64,000 nt of DNA from Flavobacteriales bacterium (lineage in GTDB: Bacteria; Bacteroidota; Bacteroidia; Flavobacteriales_D; CAJJDF01): the NCBI GenBank assembly GCA_965660305.1, contig CBFHZD010000002.1, positions 64,048 to 128,047 on the forward strand, given 5' to 3'. Below, piece by piece: positions 2,628-47,421 of this stretch; positions within the stretch are counted from its first letter, which is position 1, and the number at the start of each line of letters is the position of its first letter. Position numbers and translations under genes: made by a program. Under the pieces are notes generated by a model that was given only the letters and a program-made list of their open reading frames with translations, made no database searches and was not told the origin of the DNA.

Positions 2628-4502
2628 TTATCGTCCGAGGTAAATTAGTAAAATATTGATGTCGGTTGGTTTTATTCCAGATATTCTTGATGCTTGACCA
2701 ATAGTTTTGGGTGCGATTGTGGCAAGTTTTTCTTTGCTTTCGTTTGACAAGGAGCTGAGTTTTGAGTAGTCCATATCCGCAGGAATTCGTGTGCTTTCCA
2801 GTCGTACTATTTTGTCTGCCACGTTTTGTTCTTTTGAAATGTAGCCGTTGTACTTGATCTGTACTTCTGCTTGTTCCAACACCTCTTCTTGCAAAGAATC
2901 AAGAGTTTTGATTTTTTCAGTGAGTGTTTGTGAGGTTGGTAATACTTCCTTTAGTGAAATATTTGGCCTAGATACAATCTTGTCAAACTTCATTTTTTGA
3001 GAAATCTTGGCGCTGTTTTTGCTTTCTAAAATTGGATTGAGGGCCTCGAAATCTACGCTTGTATCTTTGAGCAACTGAATGAGTGAGTTTGTTTCTTTTA
3101 ACTTCTCTTCCACCCTTTTCATCCTTTCTTCAGAGGCAAGTCCGAGAACGTACCCTTTTGGTGTAAGCCTGATGTCTGCATTGTCTTGCCTGAGCAAAAG
3201 TCGGTACTCAGCTCTTGAGGTAAACATCCTGTATGGCTCTTCGGTTCCTTTTGTGATTAAATCATCAATAAGCACACCAATGTATGATTCGGCTCTGGTT
3301 AAAACAAACTCTTCTTTGTCGTATTTTTTCTGGTGCGAGTTTATTCCGGCAACTAGTCCTTGACAAGCAGCTTCTTCATAACCTGTTGTTCCGTTTATTT
3401 GTCCAGCAAAATAGAGGTTTTCAACCAGTTTCGTTTCTAACGTGTAGTTGAGTTGTGTGGGTGGAAAATAGTCATATTCAATTGCGTATCCTGGTCTGAA
3501 CATTTTGGCGTTTTCAAACCCGGGTATTAATCGCATAGCATTAAACTGAACATCTTCTGGAAGGGAACTTGAGAATCCGTTTACATAAACTTCGCAGGTG
3601 TCCCAACCTTCTGGTTCCACAAATATTTGATGTCTGGTTCGTTCTGCAAAGCGGTCTAGTTTGTCTTCAATAGAGGGGCAATACCTTGGTCCAGATCCCA
3701 TAATTCTACCGTTGAAAAGCGGTGATTTTTCGAACCCTTCACGCAACACATCATGAACTGCTGGGTTAGTATAGGTGATGTAACAACTTCTTTGTTTTTT
3801 AAGAGGTGTTGTTTCGGTCGAATAAGAAAACTTACCTGGGTTTTCGTCACCAGGTTGTTCTTCCATTTTGGAGTAGTCCAAACTTCTGCCGTCTACACGA
3901 GGTGGTGTTCCTGTTTTCATACGACCAGATTCAAACCCAACTTTGCGTAATCTCTCCGTAATTCCTGTTGAAGCTTTTTCTCCTGCTCTACCTCCGCCAA
4001 ATTGTTTTTCTCCCAGGTGTATGGTTCCGTTAAGAAATGTGCCGGCAGTAACAATGACTGAATGCGCTTTTATCTCTATTCCCATTCCTGTCACAACTCC
4101 TTCAATTTTGTTGTTTTCGATGATCAGATCCGTTACGGTATCTTGCCAAAAACTTACATTTGGTGTGTTTTCTAAAGCCATTCTCCAAGCTTCGGCAAAC
4201 CTTTTTCGGTCGCTTTGTGCTCTTGGACTCCACATGGCTGGGCCTTTAGATTTATTAAGTAATTTAAACTGAATCGCGGTTTGGTCTGTGATGATTCCGG
4301 AATACCCGCCTAAGGCATCTATTTCTCTGATTATCTGACCTTTAGCTATTCCGCCCATGGCAGGATTGCAAGACATTTGGGCAATGGTTTCCATGTTCAT
4401 GGTTACCAATAATACGGATGAACCGAGGTTGGCTGCTGCTGCTGCTGCTTCGCAACCCGCATGACCACCTCCTACTACTATTAAGTCGTACTTAGGATGC
4501 AT
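2628..4502 (-). CDS. mnmG: tRNA uridine-5-carboxymethylaminomethyl(34) synthesis enzyme MnmG (GidA)
   Basis: 624 aa. N-terminal FAD motif [15 protein letters not shown], and full-length GidA-like sequence ([21 protein letters not shown]). Confidence 0.97.
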
Positions 4503-4566
4503 AGTTAAATTTTTTTACAAAGATAACTAATAAAGGAATGACAAGTAAATTTGAACCTAGATTGAA

Positions 4567-5001
4567 TTAACTTATTGTTTCAATAAGGTCTATAGCTGCA
4601 TCTTCGGCTATTCTCATTTCTGTTTTTTCATCCTCCGACTTATCCTTGAATCCTATCAAATGAAGGACTCCATGGCACATAACTCTATGTAATTCAGTTT
4701 CGAAAGAAACCTGAAAGGATTGCGAATTTTCTTTAACTCTGTCTATGCTGATAAAGATATCTCCAGAAATTATTCCGGCATGGGTGTAGTCAAAGGTTAT
4801 GATGTCGGTAAGGGTGTCGTGGTTGAGGTGTTCAACATTCATTTTATGTAAATAGTCATCTGAGCAAAACACGTAGCTAATGTCGCCAGTAAGTTTGTCG
4901 TATGAGGTTATCAGCGCCTCTATCCATTTTGAGTAGGATACCGAGCCCTCTAGTTCAAAGTCGATTTCTTCTGAAAAAAATGAGATTTTGTCTTCTTTCA
5001 T
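4567..5001 (-). CDS. ybeY: rRNA maturation endoribonuclease YbeY
   Basis: HGVLHLIGFKD zinc-binding H-x-x-x-H-x-x-x-x-x-D/H motif and about 140 aa in size. The ORF track starts at 5016. The internal ATG at 5001 (MKEDKISFF) seems the more likely start. Confidence 0.88.
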   Translation of the reverse strand: MKEDKISFFSEEIDFELEGSVSYSKWIEALITSYDKLTGDISYVFCSDDYLHKMNVEHLNHDTLTDIITFDYTHAGIISGDIFISIDRVKENSQSFQVSFETELHRVMCHGVLHLIGFKDKSEDEKTEMRIAEDAAIDLIETIS

Positions 5002-5088
5002 AGGGCAAATGTACAAATCAATGATGATTTTTTGATTGAAAGCTTAACATACGGTTTTACTTTGGGCTAATTAATTGGCTTAAGGAAA

Positions 5089-8000
5089 CTATCGCACAGA
5101 ATTAAAGTACTCATTTACCCTGTTCTTATAGTAGGGAAGTAATGAGCCTGGTATGGTTTTTAATAACTCTGTTTCCTTTTCTTTCTGTTGTTGATATTCA
5201 AAGAATTCTTCGGGATTACTGATTAGCGGGTCTTTTACACCTTGTGACTCCCTCTTATCGTCAAGCTCTCTCTCCATGAGCGCTTTTTCTGACTTTAAGA
5301 GTCTAGTCATGATGTCTTTCTGGCGTTTTATTGTTTCAGAATCAACTTGGTTGTTAATAATATCTTCTTCAACTTTTTCTAATTCTTTATTGATCTTCTT
5401 TAGCTCATTTCCTAACCCTGTACCATCTCCATTGAGCTCTTGACTAAGTTCTTGTATGGCTTTTCTTAGCATGGCCTGTTCTGCAGCCATTTGAGCTAAT
5501 TCTTTGCTGTTTCCGTTTTTCCCTTTGCCCTCCGTTTTTCCTTTTTCTCCTTGTTTTTTTAATTTTTTTAGTGCTTCCCCTGCTTTTCCCTGAGCTTCTT
5601 TTAATCCAGGAAGTAGTCCAGGTTTTGGGTTAGAACCACCCGGATTGTTGCAAGATCCGCTACCAGGTTTTTTTTCGCCAGCGGCTTGTTTTTGTAACTC
5701 TTTCAGGGCTTCGTCCAGTAAAAGAGCCAAATTATTAATAGAAGTCATTGTGAATTGTTGCTGCTGTGCCGCATTTCTTGTCTTTCGCTCACCAATGTAT
5801 AGCAGTGAATTTTTAATCCCTTGGTTTATTTGATTCATTTCTTTATTCACAACTGACTGAATTTGCTCAATTCTTTTACTCAGAGCGAACAACGAATCTT
5901 CTATCATTTGTGCATCAGACTTTAGTTTTACTTGTTCTTGTCCCAGCACAACGTATTTCGGGTCATTCGTACTTGTTTGTTTAATTTCGGTTAGCACGGT
6001 TTCCTGATCAAAGGACAAGGTCAACAGATTTTCCAATAAGGCTCTTAAATCCTCCATGTTTTCTGCCGAACTGGAAGAACTAGAAGACATTTGTTTTTTT
6101 GCCTTAGCTGCTGCTGATTTCATTTTATCTGCTGCACTTTTTTGGCTGTCGTTAGCTTTTTCTTGCTTGTTTTTTTCAAGGCTTTCGGAGCTTTCGGACA
6201 TCTTTTCTTTGATTTCCTCTTTTTCTTGCTCCAATTCATTTAGTTCTTTTTTGTTTTCAAGACTTTCGTTTTTCTCTTTGATTTCCTTTAGTTCTTCTTC
6301 CGCTTTTTCAAATTCATCGTTCAGTTGTTCTTGCTCTTCTTCAGACTCTTCTTCTTTCTCTGATAACTCTTCTTGTTTTTCAGCAAGTTTTTCCATTCTA
6401 TCTGCAAATTCCTCTAACTTGTCATCCATCTCCATTTGCTTAAAAATTTCGAGCGTTCTTTCCATTTCTTTTTGCAAATCCATGTTTTCTAGATCCATCT
6501 TTTCCAAAGATTTTTGAAGCTCTTTTTTATCCAACTTCTCCATCATCTTTTCAAGTTTTTCATACAGCTTTTCCATCTCTTCGCTGTTCAACTCTTCCAT
6601 CAGCTTTTCCAATTTTTTTTGCTTGTCTTGGGAACGCTTACTCGCTTTATCAAACTTGTTTTTTTCTTGATTTTTTTTCTTCGTTTCGTTCAGTAGCGTT
6701 TTGTTCTGAGCATTCAACTCTTTATTTTGCTGAACAAGCTCTTTCATTCTTTTTTTATCCTGCCAAGTTGCACTTTTTTTGTTGAGCAAGGACTCCGTAA
6801 GCTGCTTAATTTGTTTTTGAATTTTCTCGGACTTCTCAATGTTCCTTTCCAGCTTGTTTTTTATCTGGTCACTCTTTTTCTCTTGCTCAGATTCAAACTC
6901 TTCAGCATTTGGCGTTTCAACTTTTTGAATCCCTGATCGAGCTGATTTGCTTCCGTTCACTTCATCGTTGTCCCAAACTTCAAAAAAGTATTCTACAACT
7001 TCTCCTAGTCCCAGGTTGAGTTCTGTAATATTTAAGATGTGATAAAAAGAAGATTGAGCGTACCCGCTCGAAAAATCAACGGGCACAGAGGTAAATTTAC
7101 GCCTTTCAGATGCGCTGTCTTTTTTATATTTTCTGTAGTTGAAGGAGAGTTTTGTAAATCCGTAATCGTCCGAAATATTTCCTTTGAAATAGATGAGCTC
7201 GGGGCTTATGCTATCTTGTTTCTGGTTGGCTATGATTTTAGGAAACTCATCTTTTTTAGACTGAACCCTGAACTCTAGGGTGTCTAAATTAGCCATGAAG
7301 TCATTCTCTACTTTTAACGAGAATTGTGATGAATTTTTGATTTGCTTTATGGCTTCATAAACTCCTTTATACGTCTCTTTCAAAGGCAAAGAAGACCCTT
7401 GTTCTGCAAACGAAATTACCGAAGTGTTTTTAGTTTTGAAGCTCCACGTTATTTGAGTTCCTTCTGGCACCGATACTTCATTTAGGTTGTCGTAGGTTAC
7501 ATCGGTTAAATCCGTATAACTAGGAAAATCTAACGAGATTTCGTACCCCATTACAATTGGTTTGATTACCGAGGAAAGCACATAGGTTTTGGAGTTGAAC
7601 CCGTTGGCTGTGAGCAAAAACTGTTTCTTTCCTTGTACGTTTTTAAACGTGTATTCGAATTGAGTTTTAGAAGTTTTTCGCAATTTGACTGAGTTTTCGC
7701 CCATTTTTAGGAAAACTTCATTTGGGGTTTCGCGTCCTGTAACCTCAATTTTCAATTCAAAATCTTCGTTTTCTACCACACTTAAATCTCTGTTGAGAAG
7801 GTTAAATTGAAAAGGTGCCTCAGGAATAAATTCTTGATTATAATTAATAATTCTTGTCGTTCCTTCTTTTAGTATTCTAGCATTTACAAAAAGAATAAAA
7901 AAGAAAAGAACAATAGGTGCCAGAGCAAATTTCAAGTATTTTTTGTTACCTGAAAAATCAACAGCATTTGAAAATTTGACAGGTTTTAATTCCTCAATTT

Positions 8001-39498: not shown

Positions 39499-40998
39499 TT
39501 GAGTGTAATAAAAAAGTTAGCAGGGCAAACGGCAATCTACGGAGTGAGCAGCATGTTTGCTCGTATTCTTAATTTTTTGTTGACACCCCTTTACGTTACT
39601 AGTTTTAGTACTGCGCAATATGGTGAAGTTTCCGAACTTTATGCCAATGTAGCTTTTTTTATGGTTTTGCTGGGTTTTGGAATGGAAACAGCGTTTTTTA
39701 AGTATTCAAAAACCGAAAAAAACGAGTCAACAGTTTATGGCACAGCCCTTACTTTTATTGCTGCGTCTAGTGGTTTGTTTATTTTGATGGGCTTCTTATT
39801 TACTCAACCTATCGCGGATTTAATAGGGTATGCCTCGAGGCCAGATTTTATTATTTACTTAGCCTTAATTCTTGGACTAGATGCTTTTGCAACAATTCCA
39901 ATGGCGAAATTGAGAAATGAGAGCCGAGCTAAGAAGTTTGCTCAAATCAACCTGATTAATATTGGAACCAATATCTTTTTCAATATCTTGTTTATTGCCT
40001 TTGCTAAAACTAGCTTCGACAATGGCAATAAAACGGCCTTGGTAGAGCTCATATATGATCCAGCCATAGGTATTGGGTATATTTTTATTTCTAATTTGAT
40101 AGCTACTTGTGTAAAACTTATTTTGTTATACCCAGAAGTGATTAAAGTAAAGTGGCAAATAAACAGAAAACTATTGGCAAACATGCTCATTTATTCTCTG
40201 CCCTTGATGTTGGGAAGTTTTGCAGGAATAATAAATGAAACATTTGACAGGATTCTTATTCGAAGAATTATAGAACCAGAGCAAGGAATAGAGGTGGCCA
40301 AACAACAAGTTGGTATTTATTCTGGGGTTTATAAACTGTCGATTCTAATCTCTTTATTTATTCAGGCTTTTAGGTATGCAGCTGAACCTTTTTTCTTTGC
40401 AAGGGCCAAAGAAAAAAACGCGAATCAAACCTACCGAACGGTCATGAACTATTTTATATTGGCAGTTTCGGTCATGTTTTTATTCATTCTCATGTACCTC
40501 GAGGTATTCAAGTGGCTGTTGCCAAAAAGAGAATATTGGGAAGGTCTTCATGTTGTTCCTATCCTCCTCGTTGCGAATATATTTTTAGGAATTTATTACA
40601 ATCAATCCATTTGGTACAAGTTATCTGGTCAAACCAAATTTGGGGCTTACATTGCAATGGGCGGAGCTGTCCTTACCGTTACGCTTAATGTGCTATTCAT
40701 TCCAATTTTAGGTTATGTGGCTTCTGCTTGGACTACGTTTGCGGTATATGGAGGAATGATGGTTACGTCTTATTTATTGGGTCAAAAACATTATCCCATT
40801 CCTTACAATATAAAAAAAGGAAGTTTCTTCCTAGTGTTTGCCGTTGCACTGTACTTTCTGAGTGTAGGATTTAAGTTTATTTTTCCAGGTTCGGTTGTCC
40901 TTATTTTAGGATTTAATACACTACTTTTTGTCTTTTATATTTGGTTCATTTACAACTTGGAAGGAGTAAATTTAAAAGAAATCCTAAAGAACGATTAA
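39499..40998 (+). CDS. Polysaccharide/oligosaccharide flippase (MOP/Wzx-type, multi-TM)
   Basis: 499 aa with about 12-14 TM helices. The N-terminus xVIKKLAGQTAIYGVSS is typical of Bacteroidota polysaccharide biosynthesis protein flippases. The start is a TTG. Confidence 0.78.
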   Translation: MSVIKKLAGQTAIYGVSSMFARILNFLLTPLYVTSFSTAQYGEVSELYANVAFFMVLLGFGMETAFFKYSKTEKNESTVYGTALTFIAASSGLFILMGFLFTQPIADLIGYASRPDFIIYLALILGLDAFATIPMAKLRNESRAKKFAQINLINIGTNIFFNILFIAFAKTSFDNGNKTALVELIYDPAIGIGYIFISNLIATCVKLILLYPEVIKVKWQINRKLLANMLIYSLPLMLGSFAGIINETFDRILIRRIIEPEQGIEVAKQQVGIYSGVYKLSILISLFIQAFRYAAEPFFFARAKEKNANQTYRTVMNYFILAVSVMFLFILMYLEVFKWLLPKREYWEGLHVVPILLVANIFLGIYYNQSIWYKLSGQTKFGAYIAMGGAVLTVTLNVLFIPILGYVASAWTTFAVYGGMMVTSYLLGQKHYPIPYNIKKGSFFLVFAVALYFLSVGFKFIFPGSVVLILGFNTLLFVFYIWFIYNLEGVNLKEILKND

Positions 40999-41696
40999 GC
41001 CGATTTTTCAGTTCGAAAACCTTTATACACCCACATAACGATTAACAACATCATTAAGTTATAGACGCTATCCTCTATTGGGATTGTGAGAACTCGTATT
41101 CCTAAAACCTCCTCAGGATTGTAGTTTACAACTGGATGTTGAATTAGCGAACCAGTAAGTATTCCATTTACAAGTAAAAAAGGAACGAGGCTAACAAAGT
41201 AAGTCAACAAGAACCTTCCCAGCCATTTTGGATTAAAGTAGGCTGTGATTAGCCCCAAAACACCAGTGGATAAGAAAGTAACAAAAGGATACAAAAGGTC
41301 TGAATTAAGAATAGAAAACACAATAAGAACCAAAGAAAACAGAGTTAAAAAGGGACGAGCAAAGTTGGCTAAATGGTCTTTTTTGATAAAATAATGAAGC
41401 ACTTCGTAAATAAAGAAACACGCGAATGGAATGATAACAAAGAATAACCATTCTTCTATCGGTAAAAGGAAAATTCGCAATCCAGAAGTGTAATCCTCAT
41501 TGAACCACCAAACACCTTTGTGGGTAAACCACACATCCCACGGAACAAAAATTGCCATCATAATTGCAATCCCTACAAATAGTTTTTTCCATTTTTTGTA
41601 ATAGGAAATGCGGTGCTCAAAACTCTGCGCCAAAGGATAGGACAAAGCAAACAGCAAGATATAAAAATACAGGTATTTTGATTCAAGAAACCCCAT
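40995..41696 (-). CDS. Fused lycopene-cyclase-domain protein (CrtYc/CrtYd-type, two domains)
   Basis: 233 aa, polytopic. Two copies of the PxE(E/D) motif (LPIEEWLFF and IPIEDSVYN) characteristic of the lycopene cyclase domain. Confidence 0.65.
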   Translation of the reverse strand: MGFLESKYLYFYILLFALSYPLAQSFEHRISYYKKWKKLFVGIAIMMAIFVPWDVWFTHKGVWWFNEDYTSGLRIFLLPIEEWLFFVIIPFACFFIYEVLHYFIKKDHLANFARPFLTLFSLVLIVFSILNSDLLYPFVTFLSTGVLGLITAYFNPKWLGRFLLTYFVSLVPFLLVNGILTGSLIQHPVVNYNPEEVLGIRVLTIPIEDSVYNLMMLLIVMWVYKGFRTEKSA

Positions 41697-42334
41697 TACA
41701 CAACTAGATTTAAGATCATAAAAAAGACAGTTTGAGTTCCAAAAATAACGAAACTAATTTTGCTGTTAATTCTCGGTGAAAAGGCATGAATAAGTCCGTG
41801 AATAAAAAGGCTAGTAGCAAACCACATCAGGTAGTTTTGAGCGGGTATTACATCATTTTTCCAGCTCCAAAAACCTAGCTTCATGGCCACTGGCTCTACT
41901 AAGTAATCGAGTCCTACCATCAACAACGGAGGAAAGGTCACCAGCCAAAAAGCTTTTTTAGTAAATGTTTGTACTATGCCATAGGAACTGAGAGCCAAAA
42001 ACAGCCAGTTTACTCCTATCATAACCGGTGTGTCAAAAACCTTGAACCCAAAAGGAGAGCCATAAGAGTAACTGCCGAATAATACTCCAGTTGCCACACC
42101 CGCGGCCTCTACAGAAAAACCAATGAGAAAAACAAGAAGAGAAAGCAGCAATAGTTTTCCGCTAAAGTCCTTATTTACTTTATAAAATGTAACCAGTGTA
42201 AGCAATAAATTAAGCGGAGTTAGAGGCAAGAAAAAGTGCCTAAAATTAGGTAAACTAAGACCAATTAAGCCCACAAAATGAACAATTATGAGGACAGAAA
42301 CCCAGCGGCTTTCTTTGGAAATATTCTTCATCAT
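41696..42334 (-). CDS. Carotenoid biosynthesis membrane protein (DUF422, CruF-like carotenoid 1,2-hydratase)
   Basis: 212 aa, polytopic. GFSVEAAGVATGVLFGSYSYG..FGFKVFDTPVMIGVNW resembles the CruF family. The gene is embedded in the crt cluster. Confidence 0.6.
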   Translation of the reverse strand: MMKNISKESRWVSVLIIVHFVGLIGLSLPNFRHFFLPLTPLNLLLTLVTFYKVNKDFSGKLLLLSLLVFLIGFSVEAAGVATGVLFGSYSYGSPFGFKVFDTPVMIGVNWLFLALSSYGIVQTFTKKAFWLVTFPPLLMVGLDYLVEPVAMKLGFWSWKNDVIPAQNYLMWFATSLFIHGLIHAFSPRINSKISFVIFGTQTVFFMILNLVV

Positions 42335-43794
42335 TTAATCAGGTTATCAATTATTTTTGCTGAGCTCAATGCCAATGGAATTCCTCCTCCTGGATGAACA
42401 CTTCCTCCACAGAAATACAAATTCTTGTACTCAGAAGAGAAATTTTTATGTCTAAAAAAAGCTGCAAATCGGTTGTTGCTTGATGTTCCGTAAAGCGATC
42501 CTTTGTATGAGTTTGTTTTGTCTTGTATGAGTTGTGGAGTTAATTTGTCCTCAAACTCAATGAGCTTTTCAATGTCTTCCCCTAAATTTCGCGATATTTT
42601 AGCCAAGATTTGTTTCCGAGCCTCGGCAACCATTGTGTCCCAATCTTGTCCGTAAACAGAAGGAACGTTAATCATGACAAACCAGTTTTCTTTTCCTTCT
42701 GGGGCATCTTTTTTTAGATGTTTACTCGTAATATGGATGTAGACTGTTGGATCTTCGTAAATCGTTTTGGAATCAAAAAGATGATCAAACTCTTTTTTAT
42801 AATCTTCGGTAAATAGAATATTGTGAACGTCCAATTCAGGAAATTCTTTGCCAATTCCCCAGTAAAAGATGAGCGCAGAGCTTGAACGTTCTTGGTTGTC
42901 TACTTGTTCTAGTTTCTTAGCCGAAGGAATGAGTTTTTCATAAACGGTGTGAATATCCGCATTACACACAATTAAATCTCCGGCAAAGGTTTCTAATTGG
43001 GTCACCACAGAAGTTGCTTTGTTCCCCTCGGTTTCTATGGCGGTTACTTCTTGGTTAAAATGAAATTCCACTCCAATCTCTTTAGCCAGTTTCACCAAAC
43101 AGTTGGTGATTTCATGCATTCCTCCCTCGGGTAAATAAGCGCCTAACCCAAATTCTAGGTGAGGAATTATATTCAAAATTCCAGGTGCTTTGTAGGGATT
43201 GGAACCATTGTAGGTTGCATACCTATTAAATAACCTAATAGTTTTGGAGTCGGTAAGTGCCTTTTCATTTACCTGATTCATAGAACTAAAAATGTGTAAA
43301 AAAGGAAGTTTGAGAATAGAAATTACTGTGTTTAGGGAAAGAAAAGACTTTGCCTTGTGCAATGATTTATTTAAGAATTGTTGGTTGGTAGCACGATAGA
43401 TATACCTACTTTTTCTAAGGTGTTTTTTTACTTTTTCGGCAGAATCTGTCGTTTTTTGGTCAATTTCGTCCGCAAAACGATCAATATCTGAATGGGCAGA
43501 AATTCGTGTTCCGTCTTCATAAAAATAATTACAAAGGATATCTAGTCGTTTGTAATTGAAATAATCTGTTGGTTTTTTGCCCGAGATTTCGAATAATTCT
43601 GTGACTAAATTGGGCATTGTAAAAAGAGAGGGACCCGCATCAAATCGATATCCATTTCCTTGTAGCACAGTAAGTTTACCGCCAGGATAGGAGTTTTTTT
43701 CTAACACCCGAACAGAATATCCTTTGTTTTGCAATCGAATGGCCGTGGCGATTCCGGCAATTCCAGAACCTACAATTACAGCATTTTTTGACAT
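42331..43794 (-). CDS. Phytoene-desaturase-family FAD oxidoreductase (CrtD-like by context)
   Basis: 487 aa. The N-terminal dinucleotide motif VIVGSGIAGIATAIRL...LEKNSYPGGK and the C-terminal GGSVHPGGGIP are typical of the CrtI/CrtD family. Confidence 0.85.
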   Translation of the reverse strand: MSKNAVIVGSGIAGIATAIRLQNKGYSVRVLEKNSYPGGKLTVLQGNGYRFDAGPSLFTMPNLVTELFEISGKKPTDYFNYKRLDILCNYFYEDGTRISAHSDIDRFADEIDQKTTDSAEKVKKHLRKSRYIYRATNQQFLNKSLHKAKSFLSLNTVISILKLPFLHIFSSMNQVNEKALTDSKTIRLFNRYATYNGSNPYKAPGILNIIPHLEFGLGAYLPEGGMHEITNCLVKLAKEIGVEFHFNQEVTAIETEGNKATSVVTQLETFAGDLIVCNADIHTVYEKLIPSAKKLEQVDNQERSSSALIFYWGIGKEFPELDVHNILFTEDYKKEFDHLFDSKTIYEDPTVYIHITSKHLKKDAPEGKENWFVMINVPSVYGQDWDTMVAEARKQILAKISRNLGEDIEKLIEFEDKLTPQLIQDKTNSYKGSLYGTSSNNRFAAFFRHKNFSSEYKNLYFCGGSVHPGGGIPLALSSAKIIDNLIK

Positions 43795-44252
43795 TATGCT
43801 CGGGCTTTTTTAAGTTCGTTTCTTAAGTATTTCCAAGGTACGATTAGCATTCCAAAACACTCACCATCTTCTTTCCCTGTGTGTTTGTGGTGCATTTTGT
43901 GAGCTCGTCTTATTGCTCTTAAATATACATTGTCACTATTCCTAAACCACTTTAGACGCTGGTGAATAAAAACTTCATGAACTAAAAAATAGGCTATTCC
44001 GTAGGTCAAAATACCGAAACCAATGTACATCACCGACCAAGCTCCAAACATAGATCCGAGCATGATACACAACCAAGAAGGTATGGCATAAATGAGGAAA
44101 AACGCATCGTTTTTTTCAAAAAAACTATCTTTATTTGGAACATGATGATCTAAGTGTAAACTCCACAAAAATCCGTGCATGACAAACTTGTGTGTAAACC
44201 AAGCCATAAATTCCATCCCCCAGAATGTTGCAAAAACGATTAGTAATCCCAT
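43794..44252 (-). CDS. crtZ: Beta-carotene hydroxylase CrtZ (fatty-acid-hydroxylase superfamily)
   Basis: 152 aa. Histidine boxes HKFVMH, HLDHH, HEVFIH and HKMHHKH. Confidence 0.85.
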   Translation of the reverse strand: MGLLIVFATFWGMEFMAWFTHKFVMHGFLWSLHLDHHVPNKDSFFEKNDAFFLIYAIPSWLCIMLGSMFGAWSVMYIGFGILTYGIAYFLVHEVFIHQRLKWFRNSDNVYLRAIRRAHKMHHKHTGKEDGECFGMLIVPWKYLRNELKKARA

Positions 44253-44322
44253 TTCTTTATTTTTTAAAAGCTCAAAAAGCGAATAAACGGCAGTTTAATT
44301 TTTCATCTCCCTTTTATTCATC

Positions 44323-44348
44323 GTCATCCTGAATTTATTTCAGAATCT
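44323..44348. repeat. GTCAT-hairpin-GAATCT palindromic element
   Basis: GTCATCCTGAAtttaTTTCAGAATCT. The same architecture occurs at 44986..45010. Confidence 0.5.
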
Positions 44349-44507
44349 CACAAAGAATATTTTACACTGTACTGTCATTTCTTCGAAACCGATGTTCTTA
44401 ATGCGAGAATAAAGGTAATAAATAATAAAATTAAGAGCATAATTTTCTTCCATTCCCTTTGCAATTGAAAAGAAAACAGGCAAATTTGTATCATTCACAA
44501 CAGCACT

Positions 44508-44942
44508 ATGAAAATAGAAATAATCAATAACTCACAACACGAGTTACCACATTACGCCACTTCGCAATCTGCAGGATTGGATTTGCGCGCAAACCTCCAG
44601 GAATCAGTTACTTTAAAACCTCTCGAAAGAAGATTGATCCCAACAGGATTGCACATTGCTTTACCGGAAGGATACGAAGCACAAGTTCGCCCCAGAAGTG
44701 GATTGGCTTACAAAAAAGGAGTGACAGTATTGAATGCGCCAGGAACGATTGATGCAGACTACCGAGGAGATATTGGAGTAATTCTTATCAATATGAGCAA
44801 CGAAGATTTTGTGGTTGAAAACGGTGAAAGAATAGCTCAGTTAGTCATAGCTAAATATGATCAGGCCGAATGGGTTTCGGTAACTGAATTATCCGAAACA
44901 AATAGGGGAGAAGGTGGTTTTGGAAGTACAGGTGTGAAATAG
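44508..44942 (+). CDS. dut: dUTP diphosphatase (dUTPase)
   Basis: 144 aa. Motifs [24 protein letters not shown] and the C-terminal motif [11 protein letters not shown]. Confidence 0.95.
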
Positions 44943-44985
44943 GTCGTAGGACGACAGCCATTTTGTTTTCAATACAAGTTTCATT

Positions 44986-45010
44986 GTCATTCCCGCAAAG
45001 TTGGGAATCT
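44986..45010. repeat. GTCAT-hairpin-GAATCT palindromic element
   Basis: GTCATTCCCGCaaagTTGGGAATCT, with stem ATTCCC/GGGAAT. Confidence 0.5.
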
Positions 45011-45178
45011 TAACATAGCTTATCACCACTATTCGGAAAGAATGTTACGATTTATATTTTAAAGTTGGGCTTCGAGCCATTTTGTCTCGAAAAGTCGGGA
45101 CAAAATCCTCAGCCCGCAGATTTGAGAGTAACGTGGAGAAATGATATAAAGTAAATTCTTTAAGGATTTTATACTTTT

Positions 45179-45205
45179 CCTAACAGGTGTTGTTTTCCTG
45201 TTAGG
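45179..45205. repeat. CCTAACAGG-N9-CCTGTTAGG hairpin (copy 1 of 4)
   Basis: Perfect 9-bp stem with loop TGTTGTTTT. Confidence 0.7.
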
Positions 45206-45259
45206 TATGCTTACCAGAAGCAAACTCAAAAACACCATTTCATTTAAAATAACATCACT

Positions 45260-45553
45260 CTACTTCAACCTATATTTCACATCCATTCTTTGGTGAAGAA
45301 TTCTAATTATCTCAATACAATCACTATCTGTTTTTCTGTAAAAAATAAGGTGAGATTTTATTTTTGTGAACCGGTAGTTTTTACGAATATCCTCAATTGA
45401 TTCGCCCGACATTGGTTGGGATGCAACAAACTTAATTTCTTGAATAATTAGCGAAAAATATCTATCTGCCTGTTTTCTAGACCATTTGTTTTTCGTGTAA
45501 ACCCAAATGTTTTTCAAGTCTTTTTCAGCCTCTCGACTTATTTTGTACTTCAT
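45260..45553 (-). CDS. parE: Type II toxin, ParE/RelE family
   Basis: 97 aa. A..DL..IW.Y......W....A.RY...I...I..........G...........R......H.IFYR.......IEIIRILHQRMD pattern. A 4-nt overlap with the upstream antitoxin gene. Confidence 0.85.
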   Translation of the reverse strand: MKYKISREAEKDLKNIWVYTKNKWSRKQADRYFSLIIQEIKFVASQPMSGESIEDIRKNYRFTKIKSHLIFYRKTDSDCIEIIRILHQRMDVKYRLK

Positions 45554-45792
45554 AGGTTTTCGCTATGAATTTCTTTCAAAAGATTGTCAGGGTTAAAATC
45601 CTCTACAAAACCACTTTCTTCTCCTACTTCAAGAGCTTTTATCAACTCCATTTCCTTTTTTTCTTCTCTTTCTAGCAACCTTAAAGCGGAACGAATAACC
45701 TCACTCACAGAGCCATATTTTCCAGATTTCACTTCTTCTTTAATGAAATTTTCAAAATGATTCCCTAATGATATTGATGTGTTTTTCCCCAT
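45550..45792 (-). CDS. parD: Type II antitoxin, ParD family (ribbon-helix-helix)
   Basis: 80 aa. KNTSISLGNHFENFIKEEVKSGKYGSVSEVIRSALRLLEREE is the typical ParD/COG3609 N-terminus. Confidence 0.85.
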   Translation of the reverse strand: MGKNTSISLGNHFENFIKEEVKSGKYGSVSEVIRSALRLLEREEKKEMELIKALEVGEESGFVEDFNPDNLLKEIHSENL

Positions 45793-45812
45793 TTTTTAAC
45801 GTTGTTTATCTT

Positions 45813-45833
45813 CAAATGTACCAAATCTTGGTA
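45813..45833 (-). promoter_or_regulatory. Putative parDE promoter (-7 box TACATTTG) overlapped by the palindrome TACCAA-N3-TTGGTA
   Basis: The minus strand reads TTACCAAGATTTGGTACATTTG. The inverted repeat is at 45819..45833 and the TAnnTTTG box at 45813..45820, 20 nt upstream of the parD ATG. Confidence 0.4.
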
Positions 45834-45850
45834 ACACAAGCAAATTATCC

Positions 45851-45898
45851 AAAACAAACAGCGGAGAAGGTGGTTTTGGAAGTACTGGTGTGAAATAG
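45851..45898 (+). pseudogene. Orphan duplicate of the last 15 codons plus stop of dut
   Basis: Translates [15 protein letters not shown], against [15 protein letters not shown] at the true dut end. There is no upstream ORF in frame. Confidence 0.8.
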
Positions 45899-46078
45899 GT
45901 CGGAGGGCGAAAGCCATTTTGTTTTCAGTACAAGTTTCACTGTCATTCCCGAAAAGTCGAGACAAAATCCTCAGCCCGCAGATTTGAGAGTAACGTGGAG
46001 AAATGATATAAAGTAAATTCTCTAAGGATTTTATACTTTTCCTAACAGGTATTGTTTTCCTGTTAGGTGTGTTTACCA
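45852..46078. repeat. Right copy of the long direct repeat bracketing parDE
   Basis: See 44896..45216. Confidence 0.85.
46041..46067. repeat. CCTAACAGG-N9-CCTGTTAGG hairpin (copy 2 of 4)
   Basis: Perfect 9-bp stem with loop TATTGTTTT. Confidence 0.7.
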
Positions 46079-46314
46079 TTTGCAAGCCAGAGAATGTTAA
46101 AAACTCAAAGTGATGTATTTCTTTTAGATTTAAAAGAGGAAAAACACCTGATTGGAAGATTAAAAAGAGTTCCTATTTAATTTGACTTCTTTCTTTTGTA
46201 ATGCTTTCTTGAATTAAGCTTTACCTCCTATTTTTTTCTCGAAAGGGTAGTTCTTAAAACTTTATATAATTAAAGTAAAGGATTGCTTATATTTAAACTT
46301 CCAAAATAAAAGAA

Positions 46315-47421
46315 ATGAAACTCCAAGAAATCACCAGAATTTTAGAACATATAGCACCACTTTCTTACCAGGAATCCTATGATAATTCGGGACTGCTAAC
46401 AGGAAATAATCAGCTAGAGGTTTCTAAGGTTTTACTTTGTTTAGATTGTATAGAATCTGTTGTGGACGAAGCAATTGAAAAAGGATGCGAATTAATAATA
46501 GCCCACCACCCGATAGTATTTAGTGGATTAAAAAAGCTAAACGGCAAAAACTTCATTGAGCGAGTTCTCATAAAAGCTATAAAAAACGACATAGCCATTT
46601 ATGCTTGCCACACCAATTTGGATAATGTCCTGAAAAGTGGAGTAAACCAAAAAATAGCGGAGAAATTAGGACTTGAAAACACTACAATTTTGTCACCCAA
46701 ACACAATTTGATGAGCAAATTGGTGGTGTATTGCCCAAGTGACAAACCTGAAACTGTAGTGCAAGTGCGAGAAAATTTATTTGCAAACGGAGCTGGTCAC
46801 ATCAGTGATTACTCCAATTGTAGCTTCAATAGCTCAGGCAAAGGAAGTTATTTGCCAGGAGAAAATACGAATCCAGCTTATGGAGAAAAAGGCAAAACTA
46901 ACTTTATGGACGAAACTAAAATAGAGGTTTTAGTAATGAATCAGGATGTAAATCGAATTGTAGCTGAGGTGAACAAAGTACATCCTTACGAGGAGGTTGC
47001 CTATGAAATCCTTCCTATTTCAAATCCAAATCAGCAAATTGGGTCGGGGATGATTGGAGAGCTGGAAAACGAAATGGACACCAAAGAGTTTTTATCATTT
47101 TTGAAAAGAGAAATGAAAACGGACTGTATTCGCTACACCAACATTCATAAAGAAAGAGTGAGAAAAATTGCTGTATGTGGTGGTTCAGGTAGTTTTTTGT
47201 TGAACGATGCAAAACGCCAGCAAGCCGATATTTTTATTACGGGTGATTATAAATATCATCAGTTCTTTGATGCCGAAAACGAGATCATTATTGCAGATAT
47301 CGGACATTACGAAAGTGAGCAATTTACTATTGATTTGTTTGAAGAAATTCTTAAACCTATTTCTCAACAAGTGAGTTTATTGAAAACCACTATCAATACA
47401 AATCCTGTTAATTATTTATAA
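46315..47421 (+). CDS. Nif3-like dinuclear metal centre protein (YbgI/YqfO family)
   Basis: 368 aa. DNSGLL, IIAHHPIVF and YACHTNLD motifs. An inserted middle domain and a C-terminal GHYESE. Confidence 0.9.
   Translation: MKLQEITRILEHIAPLSYQESYDNSGLLTGNNQLEVSKVLLCLDCIESVVDEAIEKGCELIIAHHPIVFSGLKKLNGKNFIERVLIKAIKNDIAIYACHTNLDNVLKSGVNQKIAEKLGLENTTILSPKHNLMSKLVVYCPSDKPETVVQVRENLFANGAGHISDYSNCSFNSSGKGSYLPGENTNPAYGEKGKTNFMDETKIEVLVMNQDVNRIVAEVNKVHPYEEVAYEILPISNPNQQIGSGMIGELENEMDTKEFLSFLKREMKTDCIRYTNIHKERVRKIAVCGGSGSFLLNDAKRQQADIFITGDYKYHQFFDAENEIIIADIGHYESEQFTIDLFEEILKPISQQVSLLKTTINTNPVNYL

Follow-up and report, generated by a model that had tools for sequence, protein, structure and literature searches.

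In the 64-kb stretch of Flavobacteriales DNA analysed here (the window; all coordinates are window positions unless a related locus, designated by an L-number, is named), the dUTPase gene dut is separated from nif3 by a parDE toxin-antitoxin (TA) pair, which is bracketed by two direct repeats containing the 3' end of dut. The gene order is dut (forward), parE (reverse), parD (reverse) and nif3 (forward), with parE convergent to dut, and all four genes give full-length Pfam matches. The features of the locus are as follows.

44508..44942, forward strand: dut, intact, encoding a dUTPase of 144 residues (Pfam PF00692, E = 2e-34, residues 12 to 142); its last 56 nt are the start of the left repeat copy.

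44887..45216, forward strand: left repeat copy (repeat search and gapped alignment), which holds the dut 3' end with its stop codon, followed by 274 nt of intergenic DNA, 94 nt of which (44994 to 45087) the right copy lacks.

44943..45009, forward strand: post-stop element ('hp' GTCGTAGGACGACAGCC plus hairpin 'B', ATTCCC..GGGAAT), which lies directly after dut in relatives and is locus-specific.

45066..45116, forward strand: long hairpin found by folding (-25.5 kcal/mol, z = -4.2), intact in the left copy only, with a homologue in L002.

45179..45205, forward strand: perfect 9-bp hairpin of the left copy, CCTAACAGG-N9-CCTGTTAGG, found by folding, with a twin at 46041 to 46067.

45260..45553, reverse strand: parE toxin gene, 97 residues (Pfam PF05016, E = 1.7e-19, residues 3 to 91, profile positions 1 to 88 of 89).

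45550..45792, reverse strand: parD antitoxin gene, 80 residues (Pfam PF03693, E = 2.6e-28, residues 1 to 79 of 80).

45813..45844, reverse strand: parDE promoter and candidate operator, assigned from motif conservation (TTTG-N5-GTTACCAAGATTTGGTAcATTTG, with the palindrome TACCAA-gat-TTGGTA overlapping a TAnnTTTG -7 box).

45843..46078, forward strand: right repeat copy (repeat search and gapped alignment), consisting of an orphan dut 3' fragment (45843 to 45898, stop codon at 45896 to 45898), a post-stop element that has decayed, and intergenic DNA; it carries the 94-nt deletion.

46315..47421, forward strand: nif3 (DUF34/NIF3, 368 residues; Pfam PF01784, E = 6.8e-81), supported also by synteny, the conserved right neighbour of a variable interval.

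The repeat search returned two direct-repeat blocks, one of 120 nt at 90% identity (44887-45006 versus 45843-45962) and one of 139 nt at 94% (45085-45223 versus 45947-46085). In the gapped alignment, the copies pair over 107 nt with 9 mismatches (left 44887-44993, right 45843-45949) and then over 129 nt with 5 mismatches (left 45088-45216, right 45950-46078), which amounts to 14 mismatches in 236 aligned positions (5.9%) and one 94-nt gap; the similarity extends weakly to about 45230 on the left and 46109 on the right, and the longest exact runs measure 61, 28 and 23 nt. The two blocks do not differ significantly in divergence (Fisher p = 0.17). The repeat reported by the first-pass annotation at 44896..45216 and 45852..46078, with about 13 mismatches over 227 positions and a 94-bp indel, is thus real and begins 9 nt earlier in both copies. 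A 32-mer of the repeat occurs exactly twice in the window, where 0 occurrences are expected, and within the window and the related loci examined the other sub-motifs are confined to this locus; the idea that the dut end is flanked by a common dispersed element was therefore rejected.

The intact dut uses the left copy. The right copy translates to 17 residues followed by a stop codon, has no in-frame start codon and differs from dut by the changes E>K and R>S, the second of which hits the conserved arginine of dUTPase motif V; it is, as had been proposed, an orphan motif V end. The sole genes in the 635 nt between the copies are parE and parD, and open reading frame (ORF) and Pfam analysis bears out the earlier statement that no integrase lies there.

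Downstream of the dut stop codon, the left copy presents in turn a short hairpin (GTCGTAGGACGAC), the hairpin ATTCCC..GGGAAT, the long hairpin and the perfect 9-bp hairpin. Related genomes have these hairpin elements after dut as well, and in the loci examined they are confined to that place; they represent a local terminator region between the convergent dut and parE genes, not a dispersed element. In particular, the long hairpin, which is destroyed in the right copy, is the likely terminator between the two genes. Its outer stem (GGGC..GCCC, GAG..CTC) is kept in the window and in L002 (1537-1580) and its inner stem is wholly different. It looks like a compensated, conserved structure and is probably a terminator. 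An Rfam scan of positions 44000 to 47000 and of L003 gave no relevant RNA family, and scans with sigma-70 and terminator consensus sequences gave nothing above shuffled controls, a null outcome that is expected for Bacteroidota. L085 has the 'B' hairpin motif (GATCC..GGATGACAATGA) a second time, on the other side of dut, between dut and a hydroxylase gene (4665-4701), which indicates that the small hairpin element has some tendency to duplicate locally.

The parD and parE genes form one operon with the antitoxin gene first, the parD stop codon overlapping the parE start codon (ATGA) at 45550-45553. Upstream of parD, the motif TTG-N5-GTTACCAAGATTTGGTAtATTTG recurs with the same spacing in six loci, namely four dut-linked ones and two cassettes at unrelated sites (L084 and L090). 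We take TAnnTTTG to be the -7 box of the Bacteroidota promoter consensus, and the overlapping palindrome TACCAA-gat-TTGGTA is a predicted, candidate operator for autoregulation. The -33 TTTG of the promoter abuts the first bases of the orphan. Conservation of the cassette extends from the promoter/operator to the parE stop codon and no further, and in L081 and L091 the parE stop codon lies 18 nt from the dut stop codon and abuts the dut hairpin. The parDE cassette is hence minimal, running from promoter to stop codon with nothing else, for a total of about 610 nt.

Synonymous divergence (dS) is saturated for all pairs of parDE alleles, and the ratio of nonsynonymous to synonymous divergence (dN/dS) across the four alleles is 0.02 to 0.11 (0.03 to 0.08 for parE and 0.02 to 0.11 for parD against the alleles of relatives), from which it follows that the genes are old and under purifying selection. 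Toxicity of ParE, its neutralisation by ParD and post-segregational killing are putative, and the low dN/dS lends them indirect support. The interval between the repeats yielded no recombinase or transposase, nor did the 24 tested ORFs of 150 residues or more across positions 27 to 61 kb of the window (34 kb, with ordinary housekeeping genes), and no recombinase occurs among the called genes of ten related loci. The ends of the cassette show no bounding inverted repeat and no integron integrase. Phage and viral collections contained no close ParE homologue, and plasmid homologues are at most 46% identical.

Related loci were collected by a one-genome-per-species scan with the Dut protein, which gave L001 to L003, by a NIF3 search, which added others, and by a ParE search, which gave L081 to L083, L085 to L089 and L091. 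Besides a 100% match that evidently comes from the same genome, the closest ParE homologues are 70 to 72% identical; all of those with readable context, which are the loci of the ParE search listed above, lie in the same place, convergent to dut, and in each of them a second dut-end fragment (11 residues and then a stop codon) is found just beyond parD. The architecture of dut, convergent parE-parD and orphan dut 3' end is shared by the window and three related lineages, which come from independent metagenome assemblies. The within-genome repeats bracketing parDE in these three lineages measure 54 nt at 87% identity, 96 nt at 86%, and 90 plus 21 nt at 92 and 90%.

None of the closest relatives from the Dut scan (L001 to L003, metagenome-assembled genomes of Flavobacteriales or Crocinitomicaceae at about 80% DNA identity) carries parDE; dut and nif3 are spaced by about 300 nt in L001, and a Zn-peptidase gene lies between them in L002 and L003. 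Furthermore, L098 presents a clean dut-hairpin-nif3 site, and L092 to L097 have the order dut, a gene for 161 residues, the Zn-peptidase gene and nif3. In L098 and L002, which belong to different species and are not strains of the window organism (NIF3 83 to 84% identical), the repeated sequence is single-copy, consisting of one dut end and the post-stop element, and parDE is absent. The NIF3 tree places the occupied or scarred sites in three separate branches, with clean empty sites between them. The polymorphism among relatives that the first-pass annotation had set as a test was thus found, in the form of occupied, scarred and empty sites, and the comparison supports its view of the locus as the footprint of an insertion at the dut 3' end that left an orphan end behind.

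The interval between dut and nif3 is variable: L002, L003, L081, L085 and L092 variably hold a Zn_peptidase_2 gene, an uncharacterised gene for 161 or 172 residues and a gene for a 448-residue protein with a CarboxypepD_reg domain, none of which is present in the interval of the window, L001 or L098. In the window and most relatives, the DNA directly upstream of dut carries on the opposite strand a carotenoid cluster (lycopene cyclase, Caroten_synth, phytoene desaturase-like oxidase and hydroxylase; 40995-44252 in the window), in place of which L081 has two PA14-domain genes (5752-7293).

In order to look for second dut ends, the dut end of each of 80 dut loci without parDE was compared by BLAST with its own flanks, within 5 kb. 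A second dut coding piece was present in one of them, L003, and absent within 5 kb from the other 79, a range at which longer islands would be missed; the ORFs downstream of dut in the 80 loci have sizes and an order that look like conserved housekeeping synteny. The L003 remnant, of 33 nt, lies 540 nt after dut and consists of 17 nt of the orphan start fused to 16 nt of the post-stop hairpin. In dut, the starting point of these 17 nt coincides with that of the L091 orphan and is within a few nucleotides of that of L085. The orphan is thus tied to parDE, being present together with it, vestigial where parDE was lost and absent elsewhere. The segment of about 540 nt between dut and the remnant in L003 (5436-5974) has no recognisable gene or RNA family and occupies the slot in which the sister lineage L085 has parDE; 41 nt of it (5905-5943) match the DNA upstream of the parD gene at an unrelated locus, L084 (92.7%), and the segment may represent different cargo in the same repeat-bracketed slot. 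In L001, two copies of the post-stop hairpin element lie in the dut-nif3 spacer (5435-5498 and 5578-5640), the second beginning where the stop codon would be. A degenerate orphan read there by eye was rejected, since its alignment score is no better than that of shuffled sequences and the 80 nt between the elements have no significant similarity to dut.

Homologous parDE pairs also occur at other loci, namely between yidC and pcm (L099 to L106) and in L084 and L090, where no repeat brackets them. A scan of metagenomes with a 24-mer of the repeat gave zero matches, and one with the ParE protein gave a single locus, at 61% identity, with no flanking repeat. In L107, whose ParE is 68% identical, parDE lies between two lipoprotein-like ORFs (114 and 163 residues) whose 5' parts share a 79-nt direct repeat at 82% identity (2402-2480 and 3468-3546); this repeat does not abut the cassette, and a second ParD-like gene precedes the 114-residue ORF. 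L100 has 55 nt of the yidC 3' end twice, stop codon included (2431-2485 and 2586-2640); the second copy is exact and lies 155 nt downstream, directly upstream of the parDE homologue. The otherwise identical L099 locus has one copy of the yidC end, and the repeat of L100 is either a tandem duplication or an assembly artefact.

Comparison of L081 with L091 bears on the history of the alleles. Their dut genes are 96% identical in nucleotide sequence (dS 0.18), whereas the parE genes are 76% and the parD genes 82% identical, with saturated parDE dS, and identity drops about 70 nt inside parE; near-identical dut next to divergent parDE indicates that cassette alleles were exchanged between lineages. 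The near-identical stretch (L081 reverse complement, 4534-5070) runs from exactly 14 nt upstream of the dut start to that point inside parE, and upstream of it the DNA of the two loci is unrelated, with PA14-domain genes in L081 and a YgaP-like gene in L091. Both sides of dut in this pair would thus be recombination or rearrangement boundaries, L091 being a low-coverage contig of 1.5 kb and possibly a chimera. The junctions also differ among lineages: the orphan starts 56 nt before its stop codon in the window and L081 and 90 to 96 nt before it in L091, L085 and L003, and the gap between the dut and parE stop codons is 18, 98 or 317 nt. Such reticulate combinations point to later deletions and recombination. 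Moreover, the orphan of L085 encodes AEWIQVT, the form of other lineages, and not the AEWNLVT of its own dut.

The repeat of the window is unusually long, and its two copies are closely alike. The shared ancestral duplication is detectable over some 56 to 111 nt in relatives, compared with 236 (+94) nt at 94% in the window, and intergenic DNA is largely unalignable between these species, while the two noncoding copies of the window are 96% identical. In addition, the left and right copies share characters that the relatives lack, namely the inserted GTTTTCAaTACAAGTTTCA and the codon ggT before gtgaaatag. Similarly, the two post-stop elements of L001 are more alike than either is to that of the window, and the orphan remnant of L003 is identical to its own dut. 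From the shared characters and the noncoding identity, we infer repeated copying between the copies, by gene conversion or unequal exchange, which would also be the reason why the orphans are better preserved than expected of neutral DNA. As to the 94-bp indel that had been noticed at the outset, it is real, and its direction can now be added: L002 carries a homologue of the 94-nt segment, in which the outer stem is kept and the inner stem differs, so that the indel is a deletion in the right copy, where it falls between CCCGcAAAGTtGgGA and CTCGAAAAGTCGGGA.

The observed anatomy and distribution of the locus, its sequence divergences and the absence of mobility genes from the regions examined are interpreted by us, with moderate confidence, as an old insertion of parDE at the dut 3' end with a long target duplication, which was inherited, reshuffled and patchily lost, and which was homogenised in the window lineage. 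According to this interpretation, the cassette would have entered the terminator region at the dut 3' end long ago, in a bacterium ancestral to a genus-level, Crocinitomicaceae-like group of Flavobacteriales, duplicating as target the last 56 to 96 nt of dut and the downstream hairpin element; the upstream copy would keep dut intact, and the downstream one would be the non-coding orphan. No recombinase would be involved now, and none would have been needed originally. That the insertion is old and patchily retained follows from the saturated dS of parDE and the patchy occupancy. The locus would have been inherited since then, its alleles being shuffled between lineages by ordinary homologous recombination, with several lineages losing it cleanly, the outcome expected of recombination between the repeats, and messy trimming in others, such as L003. 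In the window lineage, gene conversion or unequal exchange would more recently have homogenised the copies across the entire interval from dut to the hairpin, and this later homogenisation would be the reason why 236 nt are still 94% identical; the right copy would then have lost 94 nt between two short similar motifs. Killing by ParE/ParD of cells that delete the cassette may help its persistence. The earlier reading had recognised the footprint of an insertion and had missed that it is an old, clade-wide scar, decaying and recombining, with a secondary homogenisation.

Several points weigh against this interpretation. The mechanism of the original insertion is not recoverable from sequence of this age. 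The 5' boundary of the orphan (-56 versus -90/-96 nt) and the left junction (+20, +105 and +317 nt) differ between lineages, in combinations that fit no single tree, and a single event consequently needs later deletions and recombination. For the foreign-type orphan of L085, uptake of a copy from elsewhere would be no poorer a fit than vertical descent. Gene conversion is suggested by shared derived characters over short sequences, the polymorphism is seen between species only, and the activity of ParDE, like the addiction, is putative.

Among the explanations that compete with it, the first-pass annotation had proposed the remnant of an integrated island. Genomic islands and cis-mobilizable elements (CIMEs), known from the literature on ICESt1 and ICESt3, integrate at the 3' end of a gene and leave attL/attR repeats, and direct repeats spanning the stop codon of a housekeeping gene, as seen here, are produced by many islands that target gene 3' ends. 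On this view, an integrase-borne island would have targeted dut and brought along a new 3' end for it, and later deletions would have left only its addiction module. As in CIMEs, the repeats include a housekeeping 3' end, the gene is intact and an orphan end lies on the far side, and an integrase-less remnant is possible; the exact runs of 23 to 61 nt could hold an attL/attR-type core, and trimming exactly to the functional limits of the TA pair is the expected product of deletion bias combined with addiction. However, different from CIMEs, the element is of about 0.6 kb, no recombinase was found in the cassette, in the ORFs tested over 34 kb or in the ten related loci, and no intact parent island was seen at dut in any related locus, 79 of the 80 dut loci without parDE having no second dut end within 5 kb and L003 having its 33-nt remnant. 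The repeats, of at least 110 nt and here as much as 330 nt, are also long and variable in extent and boundaries between lineages, with copies 6 to 14% different and no one defined core, and neither phages nor plasmids offer a close ParE. With no positive support for it, we consider an island remnant unlikely. A cassette that actively moves without a recombinase, which had also been envisaged, would be freed by RecA-mediated recombination between the repeats as a circle of about 0.9 kb (parDE and one repeat), and this circle, or transforming DNA, would re-enter by a single crossover at the conserved dut end. The disagreement between parDE and dut phylogenies and the patchy distribution at a constant site and orientation are consistent with such movement, as is L085, where a foreign type of orphan accompanies a native-like intact dut, the expected product of a single crossover; for restriction-modification (R-M) units with long flanking repeats, a comparable life cycle has been hypothesised (PMC2853133). 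Nevertheless, synonymous distance is saturated for all allele pairs and identity to the nearest ParE is 72%, which leaves no recent transfer visible, ordinary double crossovers with dut and nif3 flanks explain the discordance equally well, and homologous parDE pairs at other loci (yidC-pcm, L084 and L090) lack abutting repeats. Movement by repeat recombination is therefore possible in principle, no recent spread being seen, and as the explanation of the locus we regard it as quite unlikely. Distinctly unlikely, in our estimation, is the stronger form in which the dut-end repeats would be the working parts of a recombinase-free mobile addiction cassette, the circle re-entering any related chromosome at the near-invariant motif V end and killing penalising its loss; if it were true, the cycle of invasion by long duplication, excision and reinvasion, hypothesised so far for R-M alone, would extend to TA pairs.

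A lineage-specific, local tandem duplication of the dut end and the intergenic DNA, which captured the TA pair or was split by it, would account for the fact that the long (236+94 nt), 94% identical repeat is peculiar to the window, the repeats of relatives being much shorter. Against it, three other lineages, whose parDE alleles are very divergent, have the orphan and parDE with the same cassette ends and orientation, and a fourth has a remnant; it follows that the basic event predates the window lineage, is old and clade-wide, and that a purely local origin needs the same accident to have happened repeatedly. Local duplication, very improbable as the origin of the arrangement, survives only as a secondary step that lengthened or homogenised the repeat and is otherwise largely refuted; the earlier argument that a mismatch level of about 6% speaks against a very recent duplication holds. 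An assembly artefact, or chance flanking by a common dispersed repeat, has in its favour only the general risk that repeats pose in draft assemblies. The copies differ at 14 positions and by the 94-nt indel and are thus not collapsed or duplicated reads, the same architecture occurs in independent assemblies from other samples, and the repeat motifs occur nowhere else in the window. Its probability is practically negligible, and the assembly error that the first-pass annotation had named as a hazard can be set aside.

Returning to the old insertion that duplicated a long stretch of its target, the closest counterpart comes from R-M systems. Insertion with long target duplication of R-M gene complexes was reportedly described by Nobusato and colleagues in 2000 (Gene 259:99). 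The pattern was defined for these complexes by Furuta, Abe and Kobayashi in 2010 (PMC2853133), with flanking direct repeats of 46 to 423 bp, a length well beyond that of the target duplications made by transposons; a related genome has one copy of the repeated sequence at the empty site, the start or stop of a neighbouring ORF often lies within the repeats, and DNA breakage by the restriction enzyme was suggested as a common cause (PMC2853133). Taking from that study the criteria of an addiction segment below 20 kb without mobility gene, direct repeats above 30 bp, a single-copy empty site and a repeat unique in the genome, we find here 635 nt with parE and parD only and no mobility gene (in the ORFs tested at 27 to 61 kb), flanking repeats of 236 aligned nt (54 to 111 nt in relatives), a single copy at the empty sites of L098 and L002, which are other species rather than strains, and a repeat unique within the 64-kb window and within the related loci. 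The locus thus resembles those cases as a small killing module without mobility gene, with long direct repeats and a single-copy empty site. Different from them, mostly intraspecific and recent with near-identical repeats (PMC2853133), it carries a type II TA pair, is old and shared across species, and has repeats that are 6 to 14% diverged. A further difference concerns the breakage proposed for the restriction enzymes, ParE being no direct cutter of DNA. ParE poisons gyrase and does not itself cut DNA. In the literature searched, no report of the long-target-duplication pattern for a TA pair was found, PMC2654758 and PMC3874152 only citing the R-M work. Insertion with long target duplication is the best-fitting known pattern, of which a TA pair as cargo would be a new instance.

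Other systems share single traits with the locus. Chromosomal integrons, such as the superintegrons of Vibrio, contain TA cassettes, minimal units each with its own promoter, which are believed to stabilise the DNA around them. The cassette described here is likewise a minimal, discrete TA unit with its own promoter, but it has no attC-type imperfect inverted repeat, no integron integrase and no array, and its flanks are copies of the target gene. A single crossover of circular DNA (insertion-duplication) yields the order repeat, cargo, repeat without a dedicated recombinase, and homology-facilitated illegitimate recombination is said to have been described in transformable bacteria by de Vries and Wackernagel in 2002. 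As in both, foreign DNA is flanked here on one or both sides by host-homologous sequence; those mechanisms are defined in the laboratory, and one of them, or neither, may have acted here. Finally, the pair resembles the ParDE of RK2 and of chromosomes in its full-length ParE, its ParD of ribbon-helix-helix (RHH) type, the antitoxin-first order of overlapping genes and the palindromic putative operator, and differs from plasmid RK2 ParDE in being chromosomal, in a core-gene neighbourhood, with plasmid homologues at most 46% identical.

For annotation purposes, an orphan dut-end fragment of 11 residues and a stop codon beside parD marks this locus and should not be taken for a second dut gene. 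More generally, chromosomal TA pairs are assumed to arrive horizontally, and the insertion step is rarely visible. In these Flavobacteriales, a minimal parDE unit would keep the scar of its arrival, in the form of a long duplication of the end of the target gene, and the scar can be traced through occupied, decayed and clean empty states across related species. The locus may thus offer a natural test of whether addiction modules enter genomes without dedicated recombinases, as has been proposed for R-M, and of whether addiction protects a cassette lying between repeats that would otherwise delete it.

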